Made by a program: the position numbers and the translations under genes. From IMG/VR virus record IMGVR_UViG_3300045988_160931, positions 1 through 64,000 of that record: a stretch of DNA of 64,000 bases. One strand, given 5' to 3'. The notes under the pieces were generated by a model, which ran no database searches, was not told where the DNA came from, and saw only the letters and a program-made list of their open reading frames with translations. Positions within the stretch are counted from its first letter, which is position 1. Every line of letters starts with the position of its first letter. The stretch is from a virus. Below are positions 1,057-55,528 of the stretch, one piece after another.

Positions 1057-1677
1057 ATGAATACAACAAAGGATACTATTGAAAAGATCACGTCTTACAT
1101 TTCTAATTTAGCAGGTTTTCCAGTCAAGAATCTGGAAACAAGCTGGGAAGAATACACAGAGCAACATCACATTTGTGAAGAAGCATTTAATATGTGGAAC
1201 AAAGGCAGAGACTACGAAGAATACAGAAAGAATGCGCATTTGTACAATGGATACAAGATCAAGTTTTCTTTTGATTCTGAATGGCTTACAAACGAAGATC
1301 TGATTACTCTGATGGAAAAATATAATTGCTTGAAATCTGGGATTGAATGGTATGAAGATGATCTTAAAATGCTCCGTGAGAATGGCGGCAGCATGGAATA
1401 TAAACGGCAGTGGATATTCCAATTTGATCTTGATATCTTAAAAGACAGCACTGATAATACGCATCCGAAATACGTCTGGGGATGGAAAGAAACTGACACA
1501 TTCCTTGCAACAAACGACTCAACATTTGATGACGAAGAATATCAACCAGCGGAAAATGACCCGGAATTTGAATCAAAATCTAAACTGATTTTTGCATTAG
1601 ATCGTGCGGAACTTATTTTTCACGATATCGCTCCGGAAAACGCCATTGAAATTGCACATATGATTATTGATCGCTAG
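1057..1677 (+). CDS. hypothetical protein
   Basis: ORF 964..1677; internal ATG 1057 lies 9 nt after GGAGG. Confidence 0.75.
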   Translation: MNTTKDTIEKITSYISNLAGFPVKNLETSWEEYTEQHHICEEAFNMWNKGRDYEEYRKNAHLYNGYKIKFSFDSEWLTNEDLITLMEKYNCLKSGIEWYEDDLKMLRENGGSMEYKRQWIFQFDLDILKDSTDNTHPKYVWGWKETDTFLATNDSTFDDEEYQPAENDPEFESKSKLIFALDRAELIFHDIAPENAIEIAHMIIDR

Positions 1678-1688
1678 GAGGAATTTTT

Positions 1689-2111
1689 ATGGCAATGGCA
1701 AACGTTGATTTGGTATGCAAGAAATGCGGAAAATCTTTCACATTTTCAAAAAGCTGCATGAGTAGACGTGCTGCGGATGATTGCGAAGAATGGGCAAAGT
1801 CTGTGATTGATCTATGCCCGGATTGCAGAAGAGAAGAGGAAAATCTAAAGGAATTCGCTGAAGATGAGAAAATAGGACTCTGTACATTGCAGGGAACCCC
1901 GAAACAGGTTTCGTGGGCAGCATCACTCAGACGGAAATATCTCAAAAATTTCTTACCTTACTTTAAGAACCGGGAATTATCAATCGCCGCTGTCAATCAA
2001 GAATCCAGTGCGGAATTTTGGATTGAGAACCGAGAACACCTGTATGATAAGCAGCTTTTGAAATCATTAAGAATGAAATACAGAAAATCAATAGAATCAA
2101 AGGAGGAATAA
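1689..2111 (+). CDS. zinc-ribbon protein, function unknown
   Basis: AGGAGG SD; CKKCG...CPDC cysteine pairs near the N-terminus. Confidence 0.7.
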   Translation: MAMANVDLVCKKCGKSFTFSKSCMSRRAADDCEEWAKSVIDLCPDCRREEENLKEFAEDEKIGLCTLQGTPKQVSWAASLRRKYLKNFLPYFKNRELSIAAVNQESSAEFWIENREHLYDKQLLKSLRMKYRKSIESKEE

Positions 2112-2190
2112 ACCGTGCCAAACGGAAAATTTTATCTACTGTTATAGGATAATATAGAACTTATTACAATTACATACGAATAAGAATAAA

Positions 2191-2221
2191 GCAGTATTGG
2201 AGCGTTCCGGTACTGCTTTTT
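2191..2221. terminator. bidirectional rho-independent terminator
   Basis: 10-bp stem GCAGTATTGG/CCGGTACTGC (two G-U pairs), 6-nt loop, A-run upstream and T-run downstream; sits between convergent genes. Confidence 0.7.
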
Positions 2222-2786
2222 ATATACCCTTTTGACGGAAAATTTCTCGGTAAAGGGCTCTATTATCCGGATTGACAAGAGTATTTCTGTTAACTCGGAT
2301 AAATTTTTTGAATTCTGGCATACGTTGAAACGCTGCTATACTACCGGATACGGAAAATTTTTCGTGTTGCATAGCAGCGTTTACCGTGTGCAGAATCAAT
2401 TCTCTTTTCAATGACTCAAAACAAATGATTGCAGAAAAGGGAATTGCTTTTGTACACGATTCACGCCTTGTATGCGGCTTTTTATTCCCTATATAGATAC
2501 GGAATAGGTAAGCGCCAGAGAACGCTTTAGAATGGATTTTAGACGGTTCTGGGACGTATATAGACAGCGTGGACTTTTTATTTTCGGTACAAAAAATCGT
2601 ATTATAAAGTAGGAGAGAAATTTTACAAGGGCGTTCTGAAATGTGCTGTTCTATGATGGATAAAATATCATGTACAGATGCAAGATCAGAATGTTTGAAC
2701 TGGATTGATTGAACGGAATATTCTTGTATGATAGAGTTATCAAGATCGTCTTGTATGGAATTTTCGATTGATTCAGATTGATTCAT
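2220..2786 (-). CDS. LytTR-domain DNA-binding protein (putative transcriptional regulator)
   Basis: The C-terminal third (IPFSAIICFESLKRELILHT...FIRVNRNTLVNPDN) fits the LytTR pattern (I.yiE...ihT...F.RvHRSyiVN). Only minus-strand gene in the early region, divergent from 3411. Confidence 0.55.
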   Translation of the reverse strand: MNQSESIENSIQDDLDNSIIQEYSVQSIQFKHSDLASVHDILSIIEQHISERPCKISLLLYNTIFCTENKKSTLSIYVPEPSKIHSKAFSGAYLFRIYIGNKKPHTRRESCTKAIPFSAIICFESLKRELILHTVNAAMQHEKFSVSGSIAAFQRMPEFKKFIRVNRNTLVNPDNRALYREIFRQKGI

Positions 2787-2877
2787 GATGTAGTTTCTCC
2801 TTATTTTAACATGATGTATAGGAAATAAATGTGCAAAATTATGTACGGAAAATTTTGTTTATGAAACTTTGTGTTGC

Positions 2878-2906
2878 TTCGTAGATAGAAACGATTTTCG
2901 TAGATA
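2878..2906 (+). repeat. direct repeat TTCGTAGATA x2 in the control region
   Basis: Exact 10-mers at 2878 and 2897. A second exact repeat, AACTTTGTGTTG, occurs at 2865 and 2951. Confidence 0.6.
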
Positions 2907-3063
2907 AATATTGTTTTTTGTCGGCAGATATTTAATAATTGTATAAAGGCAACTTTGTGTTGTCTGGAATATTATTCATGATATGTAGACAGAAAACAGA
3001 ATAATAATTGACATCTTCATATACCTCCATTCTGTTATATGGCAGGCAAGTATGACTGTTTAG

Positions 3064-3094
3064 ACGGAAAATTTATTTCTCCTAGATGGAAAAT
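3064..3094 (+). promoter_or_regulatory. paired 9-mer site (ACGGAAAAT-N13-ATGGAAAAT), candidate LytTR operator
   Basis: Two direct 9-mers with a 13-nt spacer (22-nt register) in the 620-bp intergenic region. Confidence 0.4.
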
Positions 3095-3410
3095 TCTTGC
3101 CTGCCGGGTATGGGCGTAAAGGATTTGATTTCAGTTTTCTGAAATGCTCAGTTCGATTCTGAGAACGCTCACAACAACACGGTGTTATGTGTACACAATT
3201 AGTATACACGATGATGAATGGAAAATTCAAATGAAAGGACGTGATTCAATGCTGTACGGAAAAACACATTTGAAAATCTTATAGCGAGATGGTTCGTTTT
3301 TGAACGGGAAATTATAGTAACTGATTGCATGGTAGCTTATGTAGTTGACTGCATCAATGCTATCAAAATAACATTGGTATGGTAAAAACTCACTGAAAGG
3401 AAGTATAAGT

Positions 3411-4406
3411 ATGGAAAACAATGTAGAGAACACTGGTATGCTCAAAAATTTGCATCTCACAAAGCTTATCAATGGGCACACGATTGAAGCGAAAGAGTAT
3501 AATGGCAAGCGTGTGATTACATTTAAGGATATTGATGAAGTGCATGAGAGACCGGAAGGAACGGCAAAACGGAATTTTAATGCAAATAAGAAATGGTTCA
3601 TTGAAGGAGAAGATTACTTTAGAATATCGCCGTACGAATTTCGTACGGCGTTCGGTGGAATGGATAAGCGGCAGCAGAATGATGTTGTTCTTGCAACCGA
3701 ATCTGGTTATCTCATGATTATCAAGTCTTTTCATGATGATTTGTCTTGGCAGTTGCAGCGGATTCTTGTGAACTCTTATTTCAAAGCGAAGGAGATGCAG
3801 TCGGAAAATTATGATGACTTGTCCCCAATGCTCCGGATGTTCATTCAGCAGGAACGTCAGATGAAAGCAATGCAGACAGAAATTGCAGATACAAAGGCAC
3901 AGCTGGAGATTACGCAGACGGAAAATCAGAAGCATAGCGAACGCCTGAATACCATTGATGGCAAAATCAATGCGGTTTCTGATGCAATCAAGCTGGATTC
4001 TACCAGTTGGCGTAAAGAAGTATCGTCCGTCATTCGGAAAATTTGTCGTAATGCAAATGATGCTTATCCAACAGTCGGGATTTTGTACGGTGAAATTTAT
4101 AAGGTTCTGGAACTTCGTGCAAAGTGTAATCTGACTACCAGACTGACACACAAACAGGTGCGTATGCGTGATGCTGGTGTGTGTATGAGTAAGGTAAAAC
4201 AGGTAAACCGTTTAGATATTATTGCAGAGGATGCACAACTGACGGAAATTTTCATTGCAATCGTGCGTGAGTATGCTATTAAGTTCGGCATTCGTTGTGA
4301 TTTGAATCAGAGCCAGACGGAAAATTCTGTTGTAGAAGGCTCTTCTTCTGTAAATAGTTCTGTAGAAGATGCAATTACAATTGATACAGATGCAAAAGCA
4401 ATATAA
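3411..4406 (+). CDS. ORF6N-domain DNA-binding / antirepressor-like protein
   Basis: N-terminus RVITFKDIDEVHERPEGTAKRNFNANKKWFIEGEDYF matches the ORF6N pattern; coiled-coil C-terminal half. Confidence 0.8.
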   Translation: MENNVENTGMLKNLHLTKLINGHTIEAKEYNGKRVITFKDIDEVHERPEGTAKRNFNANKKWFIEGEDYFRISPYEFRTAFGGMDKRQQNDVVLATESGYLMIIKSFHDDLSWQLQRILVNSYFKAKEMQSENYDDLSPMLRMFIQQERQMKAMQTEIADTKAQLEITQTENQKHSERLNTIDGKINAVSDAIKLDSTSWRKEVSSVIRKICRNANDAYPTVGILYGEIYKVLELRAKCNLTTRLTHKQVRMRDAGVCMSKVKQVNRLDIIAEDAQLTEIFIAIVREYAIKFGIRCDLNQSQTENSVVEGSSSVNSSVEDAITIDTDAKAI

Positions 4407-4567
4407 ATTAAAATAAAATTTACAATTGGAATGGGATGTATATGCTAATTTTGATAACAGTACATATTGTACGGAATATTTTTCTGTTATAGAAAATGTA
4501 TAATATACATAATGGGAGTATAAAAAATATTGTGACACGGAAAATTTGTTGTAGGAGGAATACGAAA

Positions 4568-5200
4568 ATGTATAATGCAAATGCAGTAGTAGAATCAATG
4601 GATTCAGACTTTGAAGCGGCAATGATGCTGCATGGGGAAGAACAGGTGGGAAAAGTAAAAATCAGAGAAAGAGAGGTTAATGAGAAAATCGCAAGAATTG
4701 AGAAAACAATTGGCAAGAGCAAGCTGACAGAAAAGAATGTATATGAGATGATCGACTTGCTGATAAAGAATTTTTCAGCATCTCCGTGGGATATTGATAC
4801 CGCAGATGGAAGATTTTTTGGAGACAAAAACAAGTTTTCAACAATTGAATATGGTGTCTTAGATCAATATAGAAATAACGAAATTGTCACACCGGGTCTG
4901 TTGCAAAAAAATTGTTATGGAGTAGTAAATGTTTCACAGGATGGAATTTTTTCTTTGGAAACTTTCCCGGCAATTGGAGTGCAATATGCAAGAGAACTGG
5001 TTAAAGATTCTCCGAAAGACAGAGAAACCACATGGAATACTTTTCAATTTCCTTTGCTTTCGGTTAGTGATGTAACAATGTCAAAAATGCGGCTAACTTG
5101 TCTGGATGGGTTTGTGTATAATATTCATACAATTTCATTCAAAATTACTGTAAATAAGCAAACACTTGGTTGTACGTTTAAGGTGAAGGTTCGTGATTAA
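4568..5200 (+). CDS. hypothetical protein
   Basis: ORF 4496..5200; ATG 4568 follows GGAGGA. Confidence 0.7.
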   Translation: MYNANAVVESMDSDFEAAMMLHGEEQVGKVKIREREVNEKIARIEKTIGKSKLTEKNVYEMIDLLIKNFSASPWDIDTADGRFFGDKNKFSTIEYGVLDQYRNNEIVTPGLLQKNCYGVVNVSQDGIFSLETFPAIGVQYARELVKDSPKDRETTWNTFQFPLLSVSDVTMSKMRLTCLDGFVYNIHTISFKITVNKQTLGCTFKVKVRD

Positions 5201-5231
5201 CAATGACAAATAAAGCAAAGGGTGTGATATA

Positions 5232-6170
5232 TTGCCAGATCATAGAATGTTTAGCCGAAGAATTTGTGAATCAGCACGGTTCTTGCAGATGCCCCCTAGT
5301 ACACAGAATCTCTACTTCCACCTGGGGCTTCATGCGGATGACGATGGTGTAGTGGAGGCATTCTCCGTGCTTAGAATTGTTAATGCAACAGAAGATGATT
5401 TGCGTATTTTGGTTGCAAGGCGGTTTGTGATAGTTTTGAATGAAGATTTGATTACATACATTGTCGATTGGACGGAAAATAATCGTATTCGTTCCGATCG
5501 TAAAGTAGATTCAATCTATCAAGACTTGTTGCTGCAAATTGTACCAGACGCTCCAATTCAGAAGCGAAAGCAGAGAGCTGATAGAAAACCACGAACGGAA
5601 AATTTGGCGGGAGGTATTCAGACGGATAGAAAATTGATAGAAGAATCTGTAACTGATGTACCTATAAATGGGAATAATGCTGTTGAAAACAGTGTTGAAA
5701 CTCAGTTGAAAAGTTGTAATAAAATGGGCTATGCTGGATTGAATACACAAAAAGAAAACAATTCAGCAACAGAAAACATGGGACGTCCCATGGACGCAGA
5801 TGGACGGCATAAGACAAGTAAAGTTAAGTTAAGTAATAGTCTGTCTTTGTCAAGTCTGTCTGCAAAACATGGAGAACTTTCAACTGTTGAAACTGTTGAA
5901 AAATGTTCTGTATCAGAACAGAGGTCAGTCCCTACATTGCAAGAGGTTTTGGATTATGCAGAAGCAATGAAGTCTAATGTGAACCCATATCGTTTTTATG
6001 AATACTATGAGAAAAGTGGATGGGAGATTAAACCTGGCGAGCCAATTCGAAATTGGAAAAGTTTGTTCCATAGTTGGCATATTCATGAGGGTATCTTCCC
6101 TAAAAAAGTGCCACAGAAAAGTGATTCAACAGTCGATTACTCTCAATTTGTGTGCAACACTGACAAATAA
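5232..6170 (+). CDS. phage replisome organizer / DnaD-like replication initiation protein
   Basis: N-terminus FLQMPPSTQNLYFHLGLHADDDGVVEA fits the replisome-organizer N-domain pattern. Start is uncertain (TTG 5232, ATA 5229 or ATG 5247). Confidence 0.65.
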   Translation: MPDHRMFSRRICESARFLQMPPSTQNLYFHLGLHADDDGVVEAFSVLRIVNATEDDLRILVARRFVIVLNEDLITYIVDWTENNRIRSDRKVDSIYQDLLLQIVPDAPIQKRKQRADRKPRTENLAGGIQTDRKLIEESVTDVPINGNNAVENSVETQLKSCNKMGYAGLNTQKENNSATENMGRPMDADGRHKTSKVKLSNSLSLSSLSAKHGELSTVETVEKCSVSEQRSVPTLQEVLDYAEAMKSNVNPYRFYEYYEKSGWEIKPGEPIRNWKSLFHSWHIHEGIFPKKVPQKSDSTVDYSQFVCNTDK

Positions 6171-7746: not shown

Positions 7747-8472
7747 ATGAGTACTGTGGCAGCAACAATGGAAAGATGTTTTACGCTTACCAGAACAGGG
7801 AAAAGCAACAACAACACATCTCATAAGCAGCGTGGTGTTTCTTCTGAAGTGTACGCATTCCAGACGGAAGAAGAACTCTGGGCAATGATTGAAAGATTCA
7901 ACGAAAAGATTGCCGAGGCTAAGTCAGAAGAACAGGAGAGAATCCAGAGCCGGAATAAGCTTTTGTTTTTGATCGGCATAAATGTTGGACTGAGATGTTC
8001 TGATTTGGTCAGCTTGAAATGGAGTTTCTTTTTTGATGAGAACATGAAAATGCGGCAAGGATATTCTCTTGCTCCTAAAAAGACGAAAAATAAAATCGTA
8101 AAGTTGCGGTTTAACGCTGCAATTGAAAAAGCGATTATGGAATACATTGAAAAGTATCCTATTCGAGACTTGAATGATTATGTATTTGAGTCACGAAAAG
8201 GGGAACATCTCTTGGAAAGATGTGTGTGTAGAATCATAAAAGAAGCTGCACAAGATGTTGGGATTGAACGGAATATTGGCTCACACTCTTTAAGAAAAAC
8301 ATTTGGGTTCTGGTGCTGGCATAATGCACAGGATTCAGATAAAGCATTGGTTATCTTACAGAAGATATTCAATCATTCTTCTACGCAGACAACGCTACAG
8401 TATATTGGTGTGCTGCAACAGGAGATGGATGATATGTATGAGAACCTTGATCTTGGAATTGATTTCATTTAA
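7747..8472 (+). CDS. small tyrosine recombinase (phage integrase family, 241 aa)
   Basis: LRCSDLVSLKW, GSHSLRKTFG and HSSTQTTLQYI match the R...H-x-x-R...Y catalytic core. Confidence 0.8.
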   Translation: MSTVAATMERCFTLTRTGKSNNNTSHKQRGVSSEVYAFQTEEELWAMIERFNEKIAEAKSEEQERIQSRNKLLFLIGINVGLRCSDLVSLKWSFFFDENMKMRQGYSLAPKKTKNKIVKLRFNAAIEKAIMEYIEKYPIRDLNDYVFESRKGEHLLERCVCRIIKEAAQDVGIERNIGSHSLRKTFGFWCWHNAQDSDKALVILQKIFNHSSTQTTLQYIGVLQQEMDDMYENLDLGIDFI

Positions 8473-9205: not shown

Positions 9206-9248
9206 TTTTTTTCGTGTAGTGGTATATGATTTTTCTACACGAAAAAAA
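9206..9248. terminator. bidirectional terminator
   Basis: TTTTTTTCGTGTAG ... CTACACGAAAAAAA perfect inverted repeat with a 15-nt loop. Confidence 0.7.
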
Positions 9249-9264
9249 TAGAATTGAATTGTGT

Positions 9265-9305
9265 TTATTTACACAAACAGTTATTTACAATCAAAACTAT
9301 TTACA
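9265..9305 (+). repeat. three phased direct repeats (T/C)TATTTACA
   Basis: Copies start at 9265, 9281 and 9297 (16-nt register), upstream of the Bro-N gene. Confidence 0.6.
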
Positions 9306-9354
9306 GCTATCAAAAACGGATGGCTGGGATAAAATTACAAAAGGAGAAAAGATC

Positions 9355-9753
9355 ATGAACGAGAACTTAATCATTCAGAAAGGTAGTGAACCATGGTTTG
9401 CTGGTGAAAAAATCGCAAATTTTTTAGGGTTTAAGAACCCATTAGATGCGTTAAAACACTATGTATCTGACGAAAACAAATCATTTGATGTTGTTGTGTC
9501 AGAAGAACAAAGTTGTCCTATATGTGTCATCAATGAGTCTGGTTTATACGAGCTGATTCTTTCCAGCGATTCTCCGATAGCAAAAGAATTTCAACATTGG
9601 ATATTTCATGATGTTTTGCCGTCAATCCGGAGAAATGGAGTTTATATGACAGAGGATTTCATGAAATACGCATTAAAGCATCCAGACTTTATGATATATT
9701 TCCTACAGAATTACAAAGCAGAAAGCCAAGCTAGTATAAAGCAAAAATTATAA
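9355..9753 (+). CDS. Bro-N domain antirepressor-like protein
   Basis: WFAGEKIANFLGF...INESGLYELILSSDSPIAKEFQHWIFHDVLPSIRRNG fits the Bro-N pattern; ATG 9355 follows AAGGAG. Confidence 0.8.
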   Translation: MNENLIIQKGSEPWFAGEKIANFLGFKNPLDALKHYVSDENKSFDVVVSEEQSCPICVINESGLYELILSSDSPIAKEFQHWIFHDVLPSIRRNGVYMTEDFMKYALKHPDFMIYFLQNYKAESQASIKQKL

Positions 9754-9792
9754 TAGCTAAAATTTACAATAATAAAACAGGAGGAGTTTATT

Positions 9793-10572
9793 ATGAGCGA
9801 AAACATGAGTATGATTAAGGTTACTTACGGTGATAATGATACACCTACGGTATCGGGACGGGAACTGCATAAGGCGTTAGGCGTCAAGACCGCTTATAAA
9901 GATTGGTTCCCTAGAATGTGCGAATATGGGTTTAGTGAGGGTGTCGATTTCAACCCGCTCATTTTTGAGCAAGTTCGTACTGAGGGTAAACGGGAAGTTG
10001 TACGAGAAATTACCGATCACCAGCTGACAATCCCCATGGCAAAGGAACTCTGTATGCTCCAGCGGACAGACAAGGGTAAGCAGATGCGACAGTACTTCAT
10101 TGCTGTAGAAGAACAATGGAACACGCCAGAGATTGTAATGTCAAGAGCTTTAAGAATGGCAAACAAAAATATTGTGTATTTGGAAGAAAAGAATACTGCT
10201 CTTGAATCTAAAATTGCAGAGGATGCACCGAAGGTAGAATTTGCAAATGCCGTAGCAGAATCAAGTTCATTGATTGATATTGGAACGCTGGCAAAACTGG
10301 CACGTGATGAAAATATTCCGATCGGAAGAAATCGTTTGTTTGATTGGCTACGGCAGCACAAATACATCATGGATAAAGAACATAAGTACGAACCGTATCA
10401 GACCTGGGTTGAAAGAGGTATCTTTGTAACAAAAGAATATGGCTACAGAACAGCATACGGTTATGAAACACAGACGAAGATTTTGGTGACAGGCAAGGGA
10501 CAGATTTACTTGATCGAAAAGCTGCGGAGCGAATTTTGCAAGAAAGAAAATGCAGTAGTAGTAAACCAGTAA
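9793..10572 (+). CDS. phage antirepressor (AntA N-domain + KilAC C-domain)
   Basis: GRELHKALGVKTAYKDWFPRMCEYGFSEGVDF (AntA-like) and APKVEFANAVAES...IGTLAKL (KilAC-like). Confidence 0.85.
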   Translation: MSENMSMIKVTYGDNDTPTVSGRELHKALGVKTAYKDWFPRMCEYGFSEGVDFNPLIFEQVRTEGKREVVREITDHQLTIPMAKELCMLQRTDKGKQMRQYFIAVEEQWNTPEIVMSRALRMANKNIVYLEEKNTALESKIAEDAPKVEFANAVAESSSLIDIGTLAKLARDENIPIGRNRLFDWLRQHKYIMDKEHKYEPYQTWVERGIFVTKEYGYRTAYGYETQTKILVTGKGQIYLIEKLRSEFCKKENAVVVNQ

Positions 10573-22680: not shown

Positions 22681-23020
22681 TATTAAAGAATGCCTATTCT
22701 GTGGCAACAAGCCGACAATAATCACGAGATATTTGAATTATGAGAAGCCGACATATCAAGTGAAATGTAAATTGTGCGGAACTACAACAATAGAATCTTC
22801 TTCTGAAAAAAATATAATTGATTTTTTGAATCAAAGATTGACTGGTAAACCAAAAACATACCGTCAGTATTTTGAAGAAAATTTTCCGAAAGATAAATTC
22901 CCAAATGCTGATTATGAGGGGATGTGTAGAGAAATGTTTTTCGGGAATGATAACAGGGATTATAATTGTGCTTATGGCGAAACTTCTTGTGAAAAATGTT
23001 GGAACGAAGAAATAAAATAA
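22667..23020 (+). CDS. Lar-like zinc-ribbon protein
   Basis: IKECLFCGNKPT signature; ATG 22667 follows AAGGAG. Confidence 0.55.
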   Translation: MEETNIKECLFCGNKPTIITRYLNYEKPTYQVKCKLCGTTTIESSSEKNIIDFLNQRLTGKPKTYRQYFEENFPKDKFPNADYEGMCREMFFGNDNRDYNCAYGETSCEKCWNEEIK

Positions 23021-23059
23021 GATGTGTAGGATGGTGACAAAATAAAAGGTGGTATTGAA

Positions 23060-23542
23060 ATGGAACAGTTTTACGAAATCACACCACAGAGTAAGCGGTT
23101 TGCAGAGTGCATGACCTACTGGAATGAGTCCGATAAGCAAAGTGAAAAAGTCAGAGAGTTTATGAGCAATCATAACATTCCGTCACCTGCTCTTTGGAGA
23201 GGAAATATTCTCTACATTAAGAAATATTCAGATATGTCTGACAACAATTTCTTGAAGAAAACAGTCAAAGACAATGGGAGTGTTTATTACGGCATCAAAA
23301 AGACAGGTTTTCTCGGCAAGGAACTGAAATCCCTTGGAGTTTGCAGAGTGTATAAGCCGTTTGTGCCGATCTTCTTTGAAGAAACGATTTCGAAGGCAAG
23401 TGTTCGCTTGTTCCCAGCCAACGGGAAAGTCTATTGCAGTGTAGAACATAATCTGGAGAAGCCTCTGACTTGTCCGGAAGGATTCGTTGAAATGAAAGGC
23501 AGTGCGTTCTATGAAATTATGGAAGGTGAGGAAGATGCGTAA
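23060..23542 (+). CDS. hypothetical protein (upstream partner of the Panacea-domain gene)
   Basis: AAAGGTGG SD; its 3' end overlaps the next start by 8 nt. Confidence 0.65.
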   Translation: MEQFYEITPQSKRFAECMTYWNESDKQSEKVREFMSNHNIPSPALWRGNILYIKKYSDMSDNNFLKKTVKDNGSVYYGIKKTGFLGKELKSLGVCRVYKPFVPIFFEETISKASVRLFPANGKVYCSVEHNLEKPLTCPEGFVEMKGSAFYEIMEGEEDA

Positions 23543-54337: not shown

Positions 54338-55528
54338 ATGAGAAAAGTAGGCAGACCTCCAAAAAAGAAACCGAATAGAAAAGATGGAAGATACGAAGTT
54401 AAAGTAAAAGTCGGAGAAAGCTTTGATGGAACAAAAATAATGAAAAGCTTTTACAGTAGTAAAAGTAAAGAAGATGCCAGAATGAAAGCAGAAGATTATA
54501 TCAATGGGATAAACTCTCATTTTGATACAAGCCCTATTTATTCAGAGAAATCTTCTATCAGTTCTTTTGACGTATGGAGCCTCACTGTATTAGATATGCT
54601 AAAAGGGACAATAAAAGATAATTCCTGGGCTTTACATTATAAAAACACCATCGAAAATCATCTAATCCCTTACTTTAAGTCTAAGAAAGTATACGACATA
54701 AAACAAATTGATATCCAAATTTTCTTCAACAAGCTGAAGTCAAAGTATTCCTTAGAAACTCTCAAAAAATTCAAAATGGTTCTTAACAAAATTTTTGAAT
54801 TAGCAATCCAAAATGATATTATCATAAAGAACCCATGTGCTAATATAAAAGTAATAAGCAGCAAGAAACAAATAGAGAAACAAACGTATACAGAAGAACA
54901 ATGCGGTCTGGTTTTACAATATGCGTTAACTCACAGATATGGTTTAGATGTCATCTTAATGTTGTTATATGGGGTTACAAGATCAGAATTGCTTGGATTG
55001 CAATGGGATGATTTTGATAAAAATGAAAAAACACTTCACATTCAACATGGGGTAACAGACACGCCTAATGCTGAGACAGGAAAAACAGAAGTTATTGTTG
55101 GTGATACAAAAAACCAATTTCGGAATAGAATCATCCCTATTAGTGCAGACGTAGTTGACCTATTAAAAAATAGGAAGAAACAAGCTAAAGTAAAATCAGA
55201 ATATATTTTCTGCAATAATAAAGGCAATGTACAAAGTCCTAGAACATGGAGTAGACGGCACTATGATGTATTTATGCGTGATATGCACAATTATTATGCA
55301 GAGCAAGGAATTGAAATCCCAAAATTGCATCCGCATGAACTCCGACACACAAGAGCAACGCTGTGGGTAAATAAGGGATTAAATTTGTATGCAATTGCAA
55401 ATGTTTTAGGACATTCAGACTTGAAAATGTTAAGAAAAAGATATGCACATGAAAATGTAGAAAGCACAAGAGAAATGCTCAATATAAATGTTCATATAAA
55501 TGTGAACAAAGGGAAAGACGAATTCTGA
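54338..55528 (+). CDS. int: tyrosine integrase
   Basis: HPHELRHTRATLWV and LGHSDLKMLRKRYAH catalytic motifs; SAM-like N-domain. Confidence 0.9.
   Translation: MRKVGRPPKKKPNRKDGRYEVKVKVGESFDGTKIMKSFYSSKSKEDARMKAEDYINGINSHFDTSPIYSEKSSISSFDVWSLTVLDMLKGTIKDNSWALHYKNTIENHLIPYFKSKKVYDIKQIDIQIFFNKLKSKYSLETLKKFKMVLNKIFELAIQNDIIIKNPCANIKVISSKKQIEKQTYTEEQCGLVLQYALTHRYGLDVILMLLYGVTRSELLGLQWDDFDKNEKTLHIQHGVTDTPNAETGKTEVIVGDTKNQFRNRIIPISADVVDLLKNRKKQAKVKSEYIFCNNKGNVQSPRTWSRRHYDVFMRDMHNYYAEQGIEIPKLHPHELRHTRATLWVNKGLNLYAIANVLGHSDLKMLRKRYAHENVESTREMLNINVHINVNKGKDEF

Follow-up and report, generated by a model that had tools for sequence, protein, structure and literature searches.

A co-oriented box array around a LytTR-like gene in the early region of a large gut phage, and its possible role in multi-site silencing

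Studying a 64,000-nucleotide stretch of viral DNA (IMG/VR record IMGVR_UViG_3300045988_160931, positions 1 to 64,000; this whole stretch is called the window below) reveals an array of at least 22 short boxes of the form A(C/T)GGAAAAT(T), counted as sites with one mismatch at most, which lie on the plus strand between 1549 and 5603. The array surrounds a minus-strand gene (2220-2786) that encodes a LytTR-like protein of 188 amino acids (aa) and faces a rightward early operon. The array itself is solid; a link to the LytTR-like protein is plausible, though not proven. To judge from its conservation, the array is a clear functional element embedded and conserved in coding sequence, even if its binder should be another protein, and its layout suggests a multi-site silencing of early phage genes. 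That the boxes are bound by the 188-aa protein itself, which would thereby dampen rightward early transcription at multiple positions, is a tentative proposal, to which we give somewhat less than an even chance.

The box array

The boxes start at 1549, 1726, 2080, 2122, 2235, 2350, 2713, 2845, 3064, 3086, 3218, 3256, 3304, 3801, 3918, 4034, 4242, 4317, 4471, 4537, 5472 and 5595, and their consensus can be written as (t)(a/g)N-A-(C/T)-G-G-A-A-A-A-T-T-(t). The exact 9-mer ACGGAAAAT is found ten times where 0.73 copies are expected, every copy on the plus strand and within 2122-5603, and none of 100 shuffles preserving the dinucleotides reached ten copies. With up to one mismatch, 22 forward sites in 1549-5603 stand against about 0.54 expected from the remaining window (P ~7e-28); elsewhere the window has eight forward sites, and reverse sites number nine over its whole length. 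Scanning with a position-weight matrix (PWM) yields 24 forward hits and one reverse hit in the array, compared to six forward and ten reverse hits outside (Fisher P 6.5e-5). The common orientation of the boxes is the direction of rightward early transcription. The array ends at 5603 within the window, and no longer repeat unit was found around the boxes.

Boxes occur in non-coding DNA, in three reading frames of the ORF6N gene (3411-4406) and the DnaD-like gene (5232-6170), and antisense within the LytTR-like gene (2235 and 2350). At least nine lie inside coding sequence, with five in the ORF6N gene and two in the DnaD-like gene. A compositional or coding artefact without function might be suspected, because the box and the plus strand are both purine-rich and in-frame translation gives Thr-Glu-Asn for four exact copies inside genes. 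The shuffles, the enrichment and the conservation of synonymous positions effectively refute this explanation, whose probability we regard as negligible: the remaining window, with its six forward and ten reverse PWM hits, has the same composition, and the copies are spread over three frames, the antisense strand of a gene and non-coding DNA.

The relatives of this phage from other metagenomes (L001-L012) retain the boxes. The most diverged of them, L009 and L011, share about 80% nucleotide identity with the window in this region. Measured against this 80% background, the seven boxes in the ORF6N and DnaD-like genes are identical at 63 of 63 nucleotides in both, and all 21 third codon positions inside these intragenic boxes are kept, where the background is 68.5-69.8% (P ~4e-4). 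Because third codon positions inside genes are invariant, selection acts on the boxes as such. The array of the longer relative L001 extends over about 8.5 kb with some 30 GGAAAAT cores and is densest around the LytTR-like gene, 13 of 22 boxes falling within about 1.5 kb of the start of this gene.

Two other assignments of the box were rejected. As an element of a sigma-70, sigma-H or extracytoplasmic function (ECF) promoter it should have a partner, and the flanks show no conserved second element at -8 to -3 or +12 to +18. A general tie to ORF6N genes does not hold either, since five other ORF6N-bearing loci, from phages with CI and without a LytTR-like gene, have the box at background level. 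Only L013 carries four copies. This distant element has two ORF6N genes (L013:3172-5713) and no called LytTR gene, and its count of CGGAAAAT (four forward and no reverse copies in 14 kb) is marginally above expectation.

In respect of spacing, a helical period of about 10.5 bp is not outstanding, the strongest period being 9.55 bp (P ~0.02). The box triplets 2122/2235/2350 and 3801/3918/4034 are spaced by 113-117 bp, i.e. about 11 helical turns, and five of the 21 box spacings fall into 113-123 bp (P ~0.03 for any 11-bp bin).

A LytTR-like gene facing the early operon

The open reading frame (ORF) at 2220-2786 is a real gene because its length and C-terminus are kept in the homologues and changes are biased to third codon positions. 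Between relatives, in which the full length is present, substitutions are found mainly at codon position 3 (e.g. 5/4/16 and 9/8/19), and about half of the altered codons are synonymous. Comparing the diverged relatives, the 188-aa protein is conserved to about 90% and its ORF6N neighbour to 83-85%. As the initial annotation of this DNA had stated, it is the sole minus-strand gene in the first 57 kb. The next credible one lies from about 57.4 kb onwards, and the remaining long minus-strand ORFs before that point overlap plus-strand genes and look spurious; ORF 22694-23173, considered as a second leftward gene, was rejected since a plausible plus-strand zinc-ribbon gene covers the same stretch.

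The divergence from the ORF6N operon across a long non-coding region, also claimed earlier, is confirmed: the control region between the two genes (2787-3410) comprises 624 bp of non-coding DNA. The ORF6N gene (3411-4406, plus strand) is the first gene of the rightward operon past this region, and its anti-repressor-type product is recognized by Pfam PF10543 (E 4.3e-15) and by PHROG anti-repressor families.

On its other side the LytTR-like gene is closed by a hairpin at 2188-2219 with 14 bp and T/A runs on either side, which adjoins the stop codon (2220-2222) and separates the gene from the convergent gene 1689-2111. With fold energies of -18.9 kcal/mol (z -4.7) on the plus and -15.4 kcal/mol (z -3.8) on the minus strand this hairpin is probably a bidirectional terminator. 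Because terminator hairpin and convergent gene follow directly 3', the LytTR-like gene can be regarded as monocistronic, and the order of gene, terminator and convergent gene is identical in all relatives.

The family assignment comes from Pfam PF04397, which matches residues 113-175 with 26.3 bits (gathering threshold 22.6 bits; E 8.6e-6) at profile positions 4-61 of 98. The close homologues bear the same precomputed match. It is the only family evidence for the protein; PHROG 8810, a group of unknown function, matches weakly. Therefore about residues 94-188, the C-terminal half, can be called LytTR-like, while the N-terminal 90 residues match nothing known. In the alignment with AgrA, FES falls on FES and FIRVNRNTLVN on FFRCHNSFVVN, with a shared F-x-R-x-(H/N)-R-x-x-x-V-N stretch. 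The 188-aa protein ends about 16 residues past the VN motif, where AgrA continues for 32 residues, and AgrA HCYASVRNVKKI has no counterpart. In place of the last approximately 35 profile positions, which are unmatched, a predicted helix is found. A complete LytTR domain of about 98 positions with its C-terminal strands is thus not present. The shortened end is common to all homologues, and a frameshifted longer LytTR protein was rejected because stop and C-terminus are kept in all relatives.

When AgrA-type sequences were added to the alignment for AlphaFold2 (AF2), the best of five models reached a predicted local distance difference test score (pLDDT) of 78.3 and a predicted template modelling score (pTM) of 0.69. 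The six best Foldseek matches of this model in the PDB are all LytTR domains (3bs1, 3d6w, 4cbv), a structural match which, due to the seeding with AgrA, is not an independent test of the fold.

The absence of a receiver domain noted in the initial annotation is supported by both scans made for it: no Response_reg (PF00072) match was obtained in Pfam at E values up to 1, and none in NCBIfam. Nothing meaningful for the 188-aa protein was found in NCBIfam, in the PDB by sequence, or by tblastn against 50,697 phage records. A word-indexed homologue search gave four clusters only, all at least 90% identical to it, and an exhaustive HMMER search of 1.84 billion cluster representatives returned only its own cluster and one fragment. 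By these searches the protein is an orphan outside its own phage lineage. We describe it as LytTR-like, receiver-less and C-terminally shortened, a weak and partial membership of the LytTR group.

The likeness to AgrA, ComE and the Bacillus cereus 3D6W domain (PF04397) consists of the Pfam match, the FES and VN stretches, the nearness of the seeded model to 3bs1, 3d6w and 4cbv, and one pair of 9-bp boxes with a 13-bp spacer. In contrast to these regulators the protein has no receiver, lacks the end of the domain and is an orphan, and its putative sites are mostly single, co-oriented and intragenic. Lacking a receiver domain, it does not belong to the response regulators of the AgrA/ComE type.

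Box pairs, repeats and folds of the control region

LytTR proteins recognize 9-bp direct repeats with 11-13 bp spacers, i.e. with a period of 20-22 bp (PMC6193735). Reading the control region, such a pair is found at 3064-3094 on the plus strand, where ACGGAAAAT (3064-3072) is followed after 13 nt by ATGGAAAAT (3086-3094), giving a period of 22 bp. The paired 9-mers pointed out before are thus present exactly as described; they are two of at least 22 boxes, an array that the initial annotation had overlooked, and not a discrete AgrA-type operator. Random placements at the same density give an adjacent pair spaced by 21-22 bp in about 19% of cases (P ~0.19), and because box density makes such pairs common, the N13 geometry is no evidence on its own. 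Among the relatives the first box of the pair shows no change, and the second has drifted to ATGAAAAAT or ATGGGAAAT. The relatives possess, however, a second pair in the control region, ATGGAAAAT-N13-ATGGAAAAT, again with a period of 22 bp, and this recurring period is the best support for a putative LytTR-type paired binding.

The initial annotation had proposed that this single pair serves an activator or switch of the AgrA type or of the LytTR regulatory system (LRS) type, which would leave the other boxes incidental. The repeat length and spacer, the second pair of the relatives with the same period and the divergent layout are all in line with it. Yet both AgrA-type and LRS-type activation would need a promoter about 10 bp downstream, and by consensus scan and by reading of the sequence no sigma-70-like promoter is found there, which weakens the pair as an activator site. 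The second pair of the relatives adjoins a ribosome-binding site and leaves no space for a promoter, and the second box of the 3064-3094 pair drifts while intragenic single boxes stay invariant. Added to the insignificance of the spacing and the missing membrane inhibitor discussed below, this makes activation through the single pair quite improbable to us.

In LRS of the HdrRM/BrsRM type the regulator is co-transcribed with a membrane inhibitor, and direct repeats are located about 10 bp upstream of a -35 element (PMC6193735). A receiver-less LytTR regulator and direct repeats near its own gene are what the two systems have in common. Here, the repeats do not appear to be placed in this way: the TTCGTAGATA pair, whose period is 19 bp, begins 12 bp upstream of what is only a candidate -35, and the ACGGAAAAT pair is about 200 bp away. 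No gene for a membrane inhibitor follows the LytTR-like gene in the window or the relatives, only the terminator and then the convergent gene, and because this membrane partner is missing we do not assign the system to the LRS.

The candidate promoter of the LytTR-like gene, TTCATA-16-CATAAT on the minus strand (-35 at 2865-2860, -10 at 2843-2838), is a consensus match only. The box at 2845-2855 falls into its spacer, which suggests repression rather than a positive feedback of the LRS type; this box is kept in all relatives. For the rightward direction a consensus scan offers TTGACT-18-TAACAT (3345-3374, plus strand) before the ORF6N gene.

The control region had been called repeat-rich, and rightly so, as it holds the TTCGTAGATA and AACTTTGTGTTG repeats in addition to a 10-bp inverted repeat. 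TTCGTAGATA is present in only two exact copies in the window (2878-2906, plus strand, starts at 2878 and 2897), and both are conserved in relatives; the two AACTTTGTGTTG copies (2865-2876 and 2951-2962) are 86 bp apart. Both repeat families are confined to the half of the control region nearest to the LytTR-like gene. Compared to the window, the control region of relatives is longer by about 207 bp, and about 230 extra bases in it carry a small acidic ORF and the second box pair. The position around 3290-3300 appears as a hotspot of gene gain and loss in comparison with L001:9252-9467 and L011:6563-6973; the acidic ORF of the relatives has 60-71 aa, and L011 and L012 carry a 136-aa ORF instead.

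The box pair 3064-3094 is enclosed by an inverted repeat, GGCAGGCAAG and CTTGCCTGCC (3041-3105, plus strand), with perfect 10-bp arms at 3041-3050 and 3096-3105. The predicted hairpin has -28.5 kcal/mol (z -4.9), and for the stretch 3030-3200 the predicted fold has -52.8 kcal/mol (z -5.0). Across all relatives hardly any change is seen in block 3041-3171, in contrast to its variable flanks. Its right part (3111-3171, plus strand) can be folded into a three-way junction with a 7-bp outer stem, a hairpin ATTTCAG/CTGAAAT and a T-arm-like CTCAG-TTCGATT-CTGAG. This junction resembles a tRNA in its canonical T-arm and 7-bp acceptor-like stem, and has an 'anticodon' loop of 4 nt and no D-arm. ARAGORN made no call and no Rfam family matched here. 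A host tRNA copy or phage attachment site (attP) at 3111-3171 was rejected for this reason and because the 24-mer of T-arm and acceptor is found in none of 185,579 genomes.

Two further plus-strand hairpins are predicted inside the LytTR-like coding sequence, at 2328-2382 (-27.5 kcal/mol, z -4.3), which holds box 2350, and at 2385-2458 (-36.7 kcal/mol, z -5.7). Region 2328-2458 is nearly invariant and lies in the most conserved part of the gene. From a TG-extended -10-like site at 2315-2342, a plus-strand RNA would begin at about 2350.

These folds raise the question whether boxes and hairpins act in plus-strand RNA or in single-stranded DNA (ssDNA), with the box shown in loops. An RNA- or ssDNA-binding factor would then read the box, for processing, antitermination or antisense control of the LytTR-like gene, and block 3041-3171 would be a structured non-coding RNA. 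All boxes being on the plus strand, the near-invariance of 3041-3171 amid varying flanks and the z-scores of -4.3 to -5.7 for the folds of 3030-3200, 2320-2390 and 2370-2475 would agree with this. In addition, several boxes lie within inverted repeats with differing stems (2235, 6 bp; 2350, 12 bp; 3064/3086, 10 bp; 4317, 6 bp; 4471, 7 bp), and all four substitutions in predicted stems (2391, 2442, 3142 and 3171) keep G.U pairing on the plus strand only. The latter has a P of only ~0.06, however, and compensatory double changes in the predicted stems are absent among the relatives. The stem enrichment is modest as well, with a mean of 4.5 against 3.9 bp and stems of at least 6 bp in 4 of 22 boxes against a background of 8%, and no Rfam family matches. 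Moreover, the strong terminator at 2188-2219 should end a plus-strand RNA before boxes 2235 and 2350. Plus-strand RNA over these two boxes is therefore unlikely and a role at the DNA level is favoured, so that we consider an action in RNA or ssDNA improbable.

The CI slot, the proposed mechanism and known systems

The plus arm of the window encodes a DnaD-like loader, a DnaB-type helicase, a DnaE-type polymerase, a RecD2-like helicase, NrdD, a methyltransferase, a sigma-like factor, several anti-repressor-type genes and a 396-aa tyrosine integrase (54338-55528); from 57.4 kb on the minus strand follow an amidase and a Peptidase_G2 tail-fibre protein. The polymerase has its closest counterpart (48%) in the 132-kb Clostridioides phage pCD1602_4, and related metagenomic contigs reach up to 96-117 kb. 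Because of this gene content, the kinship of the polymerase and the size of the relatives, the window is taken to belong to a large Firmicutes phage and to start inside its early arm. A search for IMG/VR relatives via the DnaD-like protein found none. The anti-repressors of the early arm are of four types, ORF6N, Bro-N, AntA/ANT and pRha (3411-4406, 9226-10572; L001:51-734).

Ordinary temperate phages (loci L016-L019) with ORF6N homologues of 45-47% identity show what is found there opposite such a gene. In them ORF6N comes directly after a cro-like gene, and on the opposite side stands an HTH_3 CI gene followed by an integrase. Therefore the LytTR-like gene occupies the position of CI, and like there a leftward regulator faces a rightward operon with ORF6N as its first or second gene, the divergent arrangement of a CI/Cro-type switch. 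What differs is that neither of the flanking helix-turn-helix (HTH) genes, HTH_3 CI or the cro-like gene before ORF6N, is present here and that the integrase is 50 kb away.

To this extent the earlier statement that a CI/Cro pair is missing at the divergent spot stands. In the relatives L001 and L008, however, a leftward Cro/CI-type HTH_26 gene is placed at the head of this rightward operon, some 7 kb upstream from the LytTR-like gene. It is found at L001:17408-17770 and L008:8320-8604, together with an intergenic region of about 600 bp without boxes. This gene, known from relatives only because the window begins to the right of its position, probably serves this phage group as its conventional repressor. 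The LytTR-like gene is thus not the only or outermost switch of the early operon. Of the initial view that it is the switch regulator, the CI position, the divergence and the lack of a receiver hold, while the HTH_26 gene partly bears out the condition under which that view was to be given up, i.e. a CI-like repressor encoded elsewhere. The HTH_26 protein is a poor candidate for the box binder because its own intergenic region is free of boxes in L001.

From the gene with its weak LytTR match, from the array with its bias in orientation and its conservation, and from the synteny, all of which were observed, we infer binding, repression and a block of elongation by the 188-aa protein. The protein would be bound mostly to single boxes, and as a phased pair at 3064-3094 and at the second pair of the relatives. 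Its own promoter would be held down via box 2845 in the spacer and rightward early transcription would be held down at initiation in the control region, while boxes within the operon may serve as orientation-dependent roadblocks of elongation. The LytTR-like gene would then form a second, inner checkpoint downstream of the Cro/CI-type HTH gene that heads the operon. As a binder of the boxes, the LytTR-like protein is the most economical choice because the array is centred on its gene, a box lies in its candidate promoter, the phased pairs show the LytTR period and the HTH_26 intergenic region is box-free.

Several points weigh against a binding by the 188-aa protein. PF04397 covers only 58 of 98 profile positions, and the strand which in AgrA holds the base-contacting residue R233 is missing (the AgrA sequence itself was matched at 100%). 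The comparison of the protein with an AgrA profile by hhalign is weak (E 0.064), because the AgrA search gave only near-identical staphylococcal sequences. On its own shallow homologue alignment AF2 gives a pLDDT of 35.7. With AgrA seeding the other four models remain at a pLDDT of 38-59, and the template modelling (TM) scores against the LytTR structures in the PDB are only 0.44-0.55. Hence the claim that the C-terminus has a LytTR fold, which PF04397 supports above its threshold, is only partly sustained in view of the shortened domain and the low score of the unseeded model. No covariation of protein and motif is possible, since the homologues all share about 90% identity and the box does not change among them. 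Most boxes are single and, unlike known LytTR sites, have no consistent partner at 21-22 bp. In the control region promoter-like matches occur at chance level (11 as compared to 10.9 expected in shuffles), and the TTCGTAGATA pair could be an alternative operator of the LytTR-like gene. Finally, the boxes, to a large part intragenic, are restricted to the early-left 4-8.5 kb, unlike the genome-wide intergenic stoperators of mycobacteriophages.

The boxes might also be protein sites with a binder other than the 188-aa protein, which we regard as possible but on the unlikely side. Candidates are the 241-aa recombinase-type protein (7747-8472), the ORF6N/KilA-N-type protein, a LytTR response regulator of the host, or the DnaD-like replisome organiser (5232-6170), which would make the boxes iterons of an origin or titration sites. 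With such a binder, the LytTR-like protein would work on the local TTCGTAGATA repeats or, as a moron, on promoters of the host. Its gene is indeed moron-like in being monocistronic with a terminator of its own, and the two TTCGTAGATA copies are unique to the stretch just upstream of its candidate promoter; the 19-bp period of these repeats, however, is outside the 20-22 bp range of LytTR sites (PMC6193735). For the DnaD-like or ORF6N proteins the two and five boxes within their genes could be put forward. Origin iterons are normally tight clusters and not dispersed across 4-8 kb, and five other ORF6N-bearing phages are without enrichment. In favour of another binder, L013, in which no LytTR gene was called, has its four forward and no reverse copies of CGGAAAAT. 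What stands against the DnaD-like and recombinase genes alike is that the array is centred on the LytTR-like gene and not on them.

For the recombinase-type protein there is a precedent in SPbeta, whose MrpR is a master repressor with tyrosine-recombinase fold that acts on dispersed repeats, the SPBRE, at about ten places in promoter regions (PMC10516654). The 241-aa gene 7747-8472 could be an analogue of MrpR. It belongs to the early operon, has a tyrosine-recombinase catalytic domain only, with R, HxxR, H and Y visible by eye, and is present in all relatives. In some of them an IS605 OrfB/TnpB (Cas12f-like) insertion in the early operon is located just before it (L011:11332-12507, L012:8102-9277). 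With SPbeta our phage shares the large Firmicutes phage type, a non-classical fold of the repressor, which here is a putative one, and a short, repeated and conserved element. The boxes differ from SPBRE in being more numerous and intragenic, and the candidate protein in being LytTR-like.

Returning to the LytTR-like protein as binder, the array also resembles the stoperators of cluster A mycobacteriophages (L5 gp71, TipsytheTRex), where a monomeric repressor binds more than 20 asymmetric sites and blocks initiation and, depending on orientation, also elongation (PMC9283540). In both cases there are more than 20 asymmetric sites of about 10-13 bp whose orientation follows transcription, located in a control region as well as within the operon. 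The stoperator repressor is an HTH protein and its sites lie in short intergenic gaps genome-wide, whereas here many sites are intragenic and all are confined to 4-8.5 kb of the early arm. Furthermore, host phylum and phage type differ, and the function is one that we infer here. Many co-oriented asymmetric sites are thus found without the genome-wide placement in short gaps, and with intragenic sites limited to one region and another protein fold, this is not a clean stoperator system. The full form of our proposal is that in a Firmicutes phage of about 100 kb or more a truncated, receiver-less LytTR-fold repressor in the CI slot uses about 20-30 co-oriented single boxes, scattered over its early genes and also within coding sequence and its own gene, for a stoperator-like, orientation-dependent silencing that arose independently of actinobacteriophages on another DNA-binding fold. 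As a whole this is rather unlikely. In a bolder variant, a quorum-sensing LytTR response regulator of the host would also read the boxes and the phage protein would compete with it.

Phage immunity and early control are known mainly from dimeric HTH repressors on palindromic operators. To our knowledge only two well-studied exceptions use many dispersed asymmetric sites, the stoperators of the L5 type and SPbeta MrpR with SPBRE. A search of the literature found no report of a LytTR protein as a phage repressor. If the LytTR-like protein binds the array, a third and unrelated DNA-binding fold would be added to the dispersed-site repressors, and a stoperator-like logic would reach the Firmicutes phages of the gut. 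It would also mean that a LytTR domain can work on single boxes and needs neither a receiver nor its last strands for this. Box and protein together would then be a defined determinant of immunity in an uncultured family of large phages of the gut.

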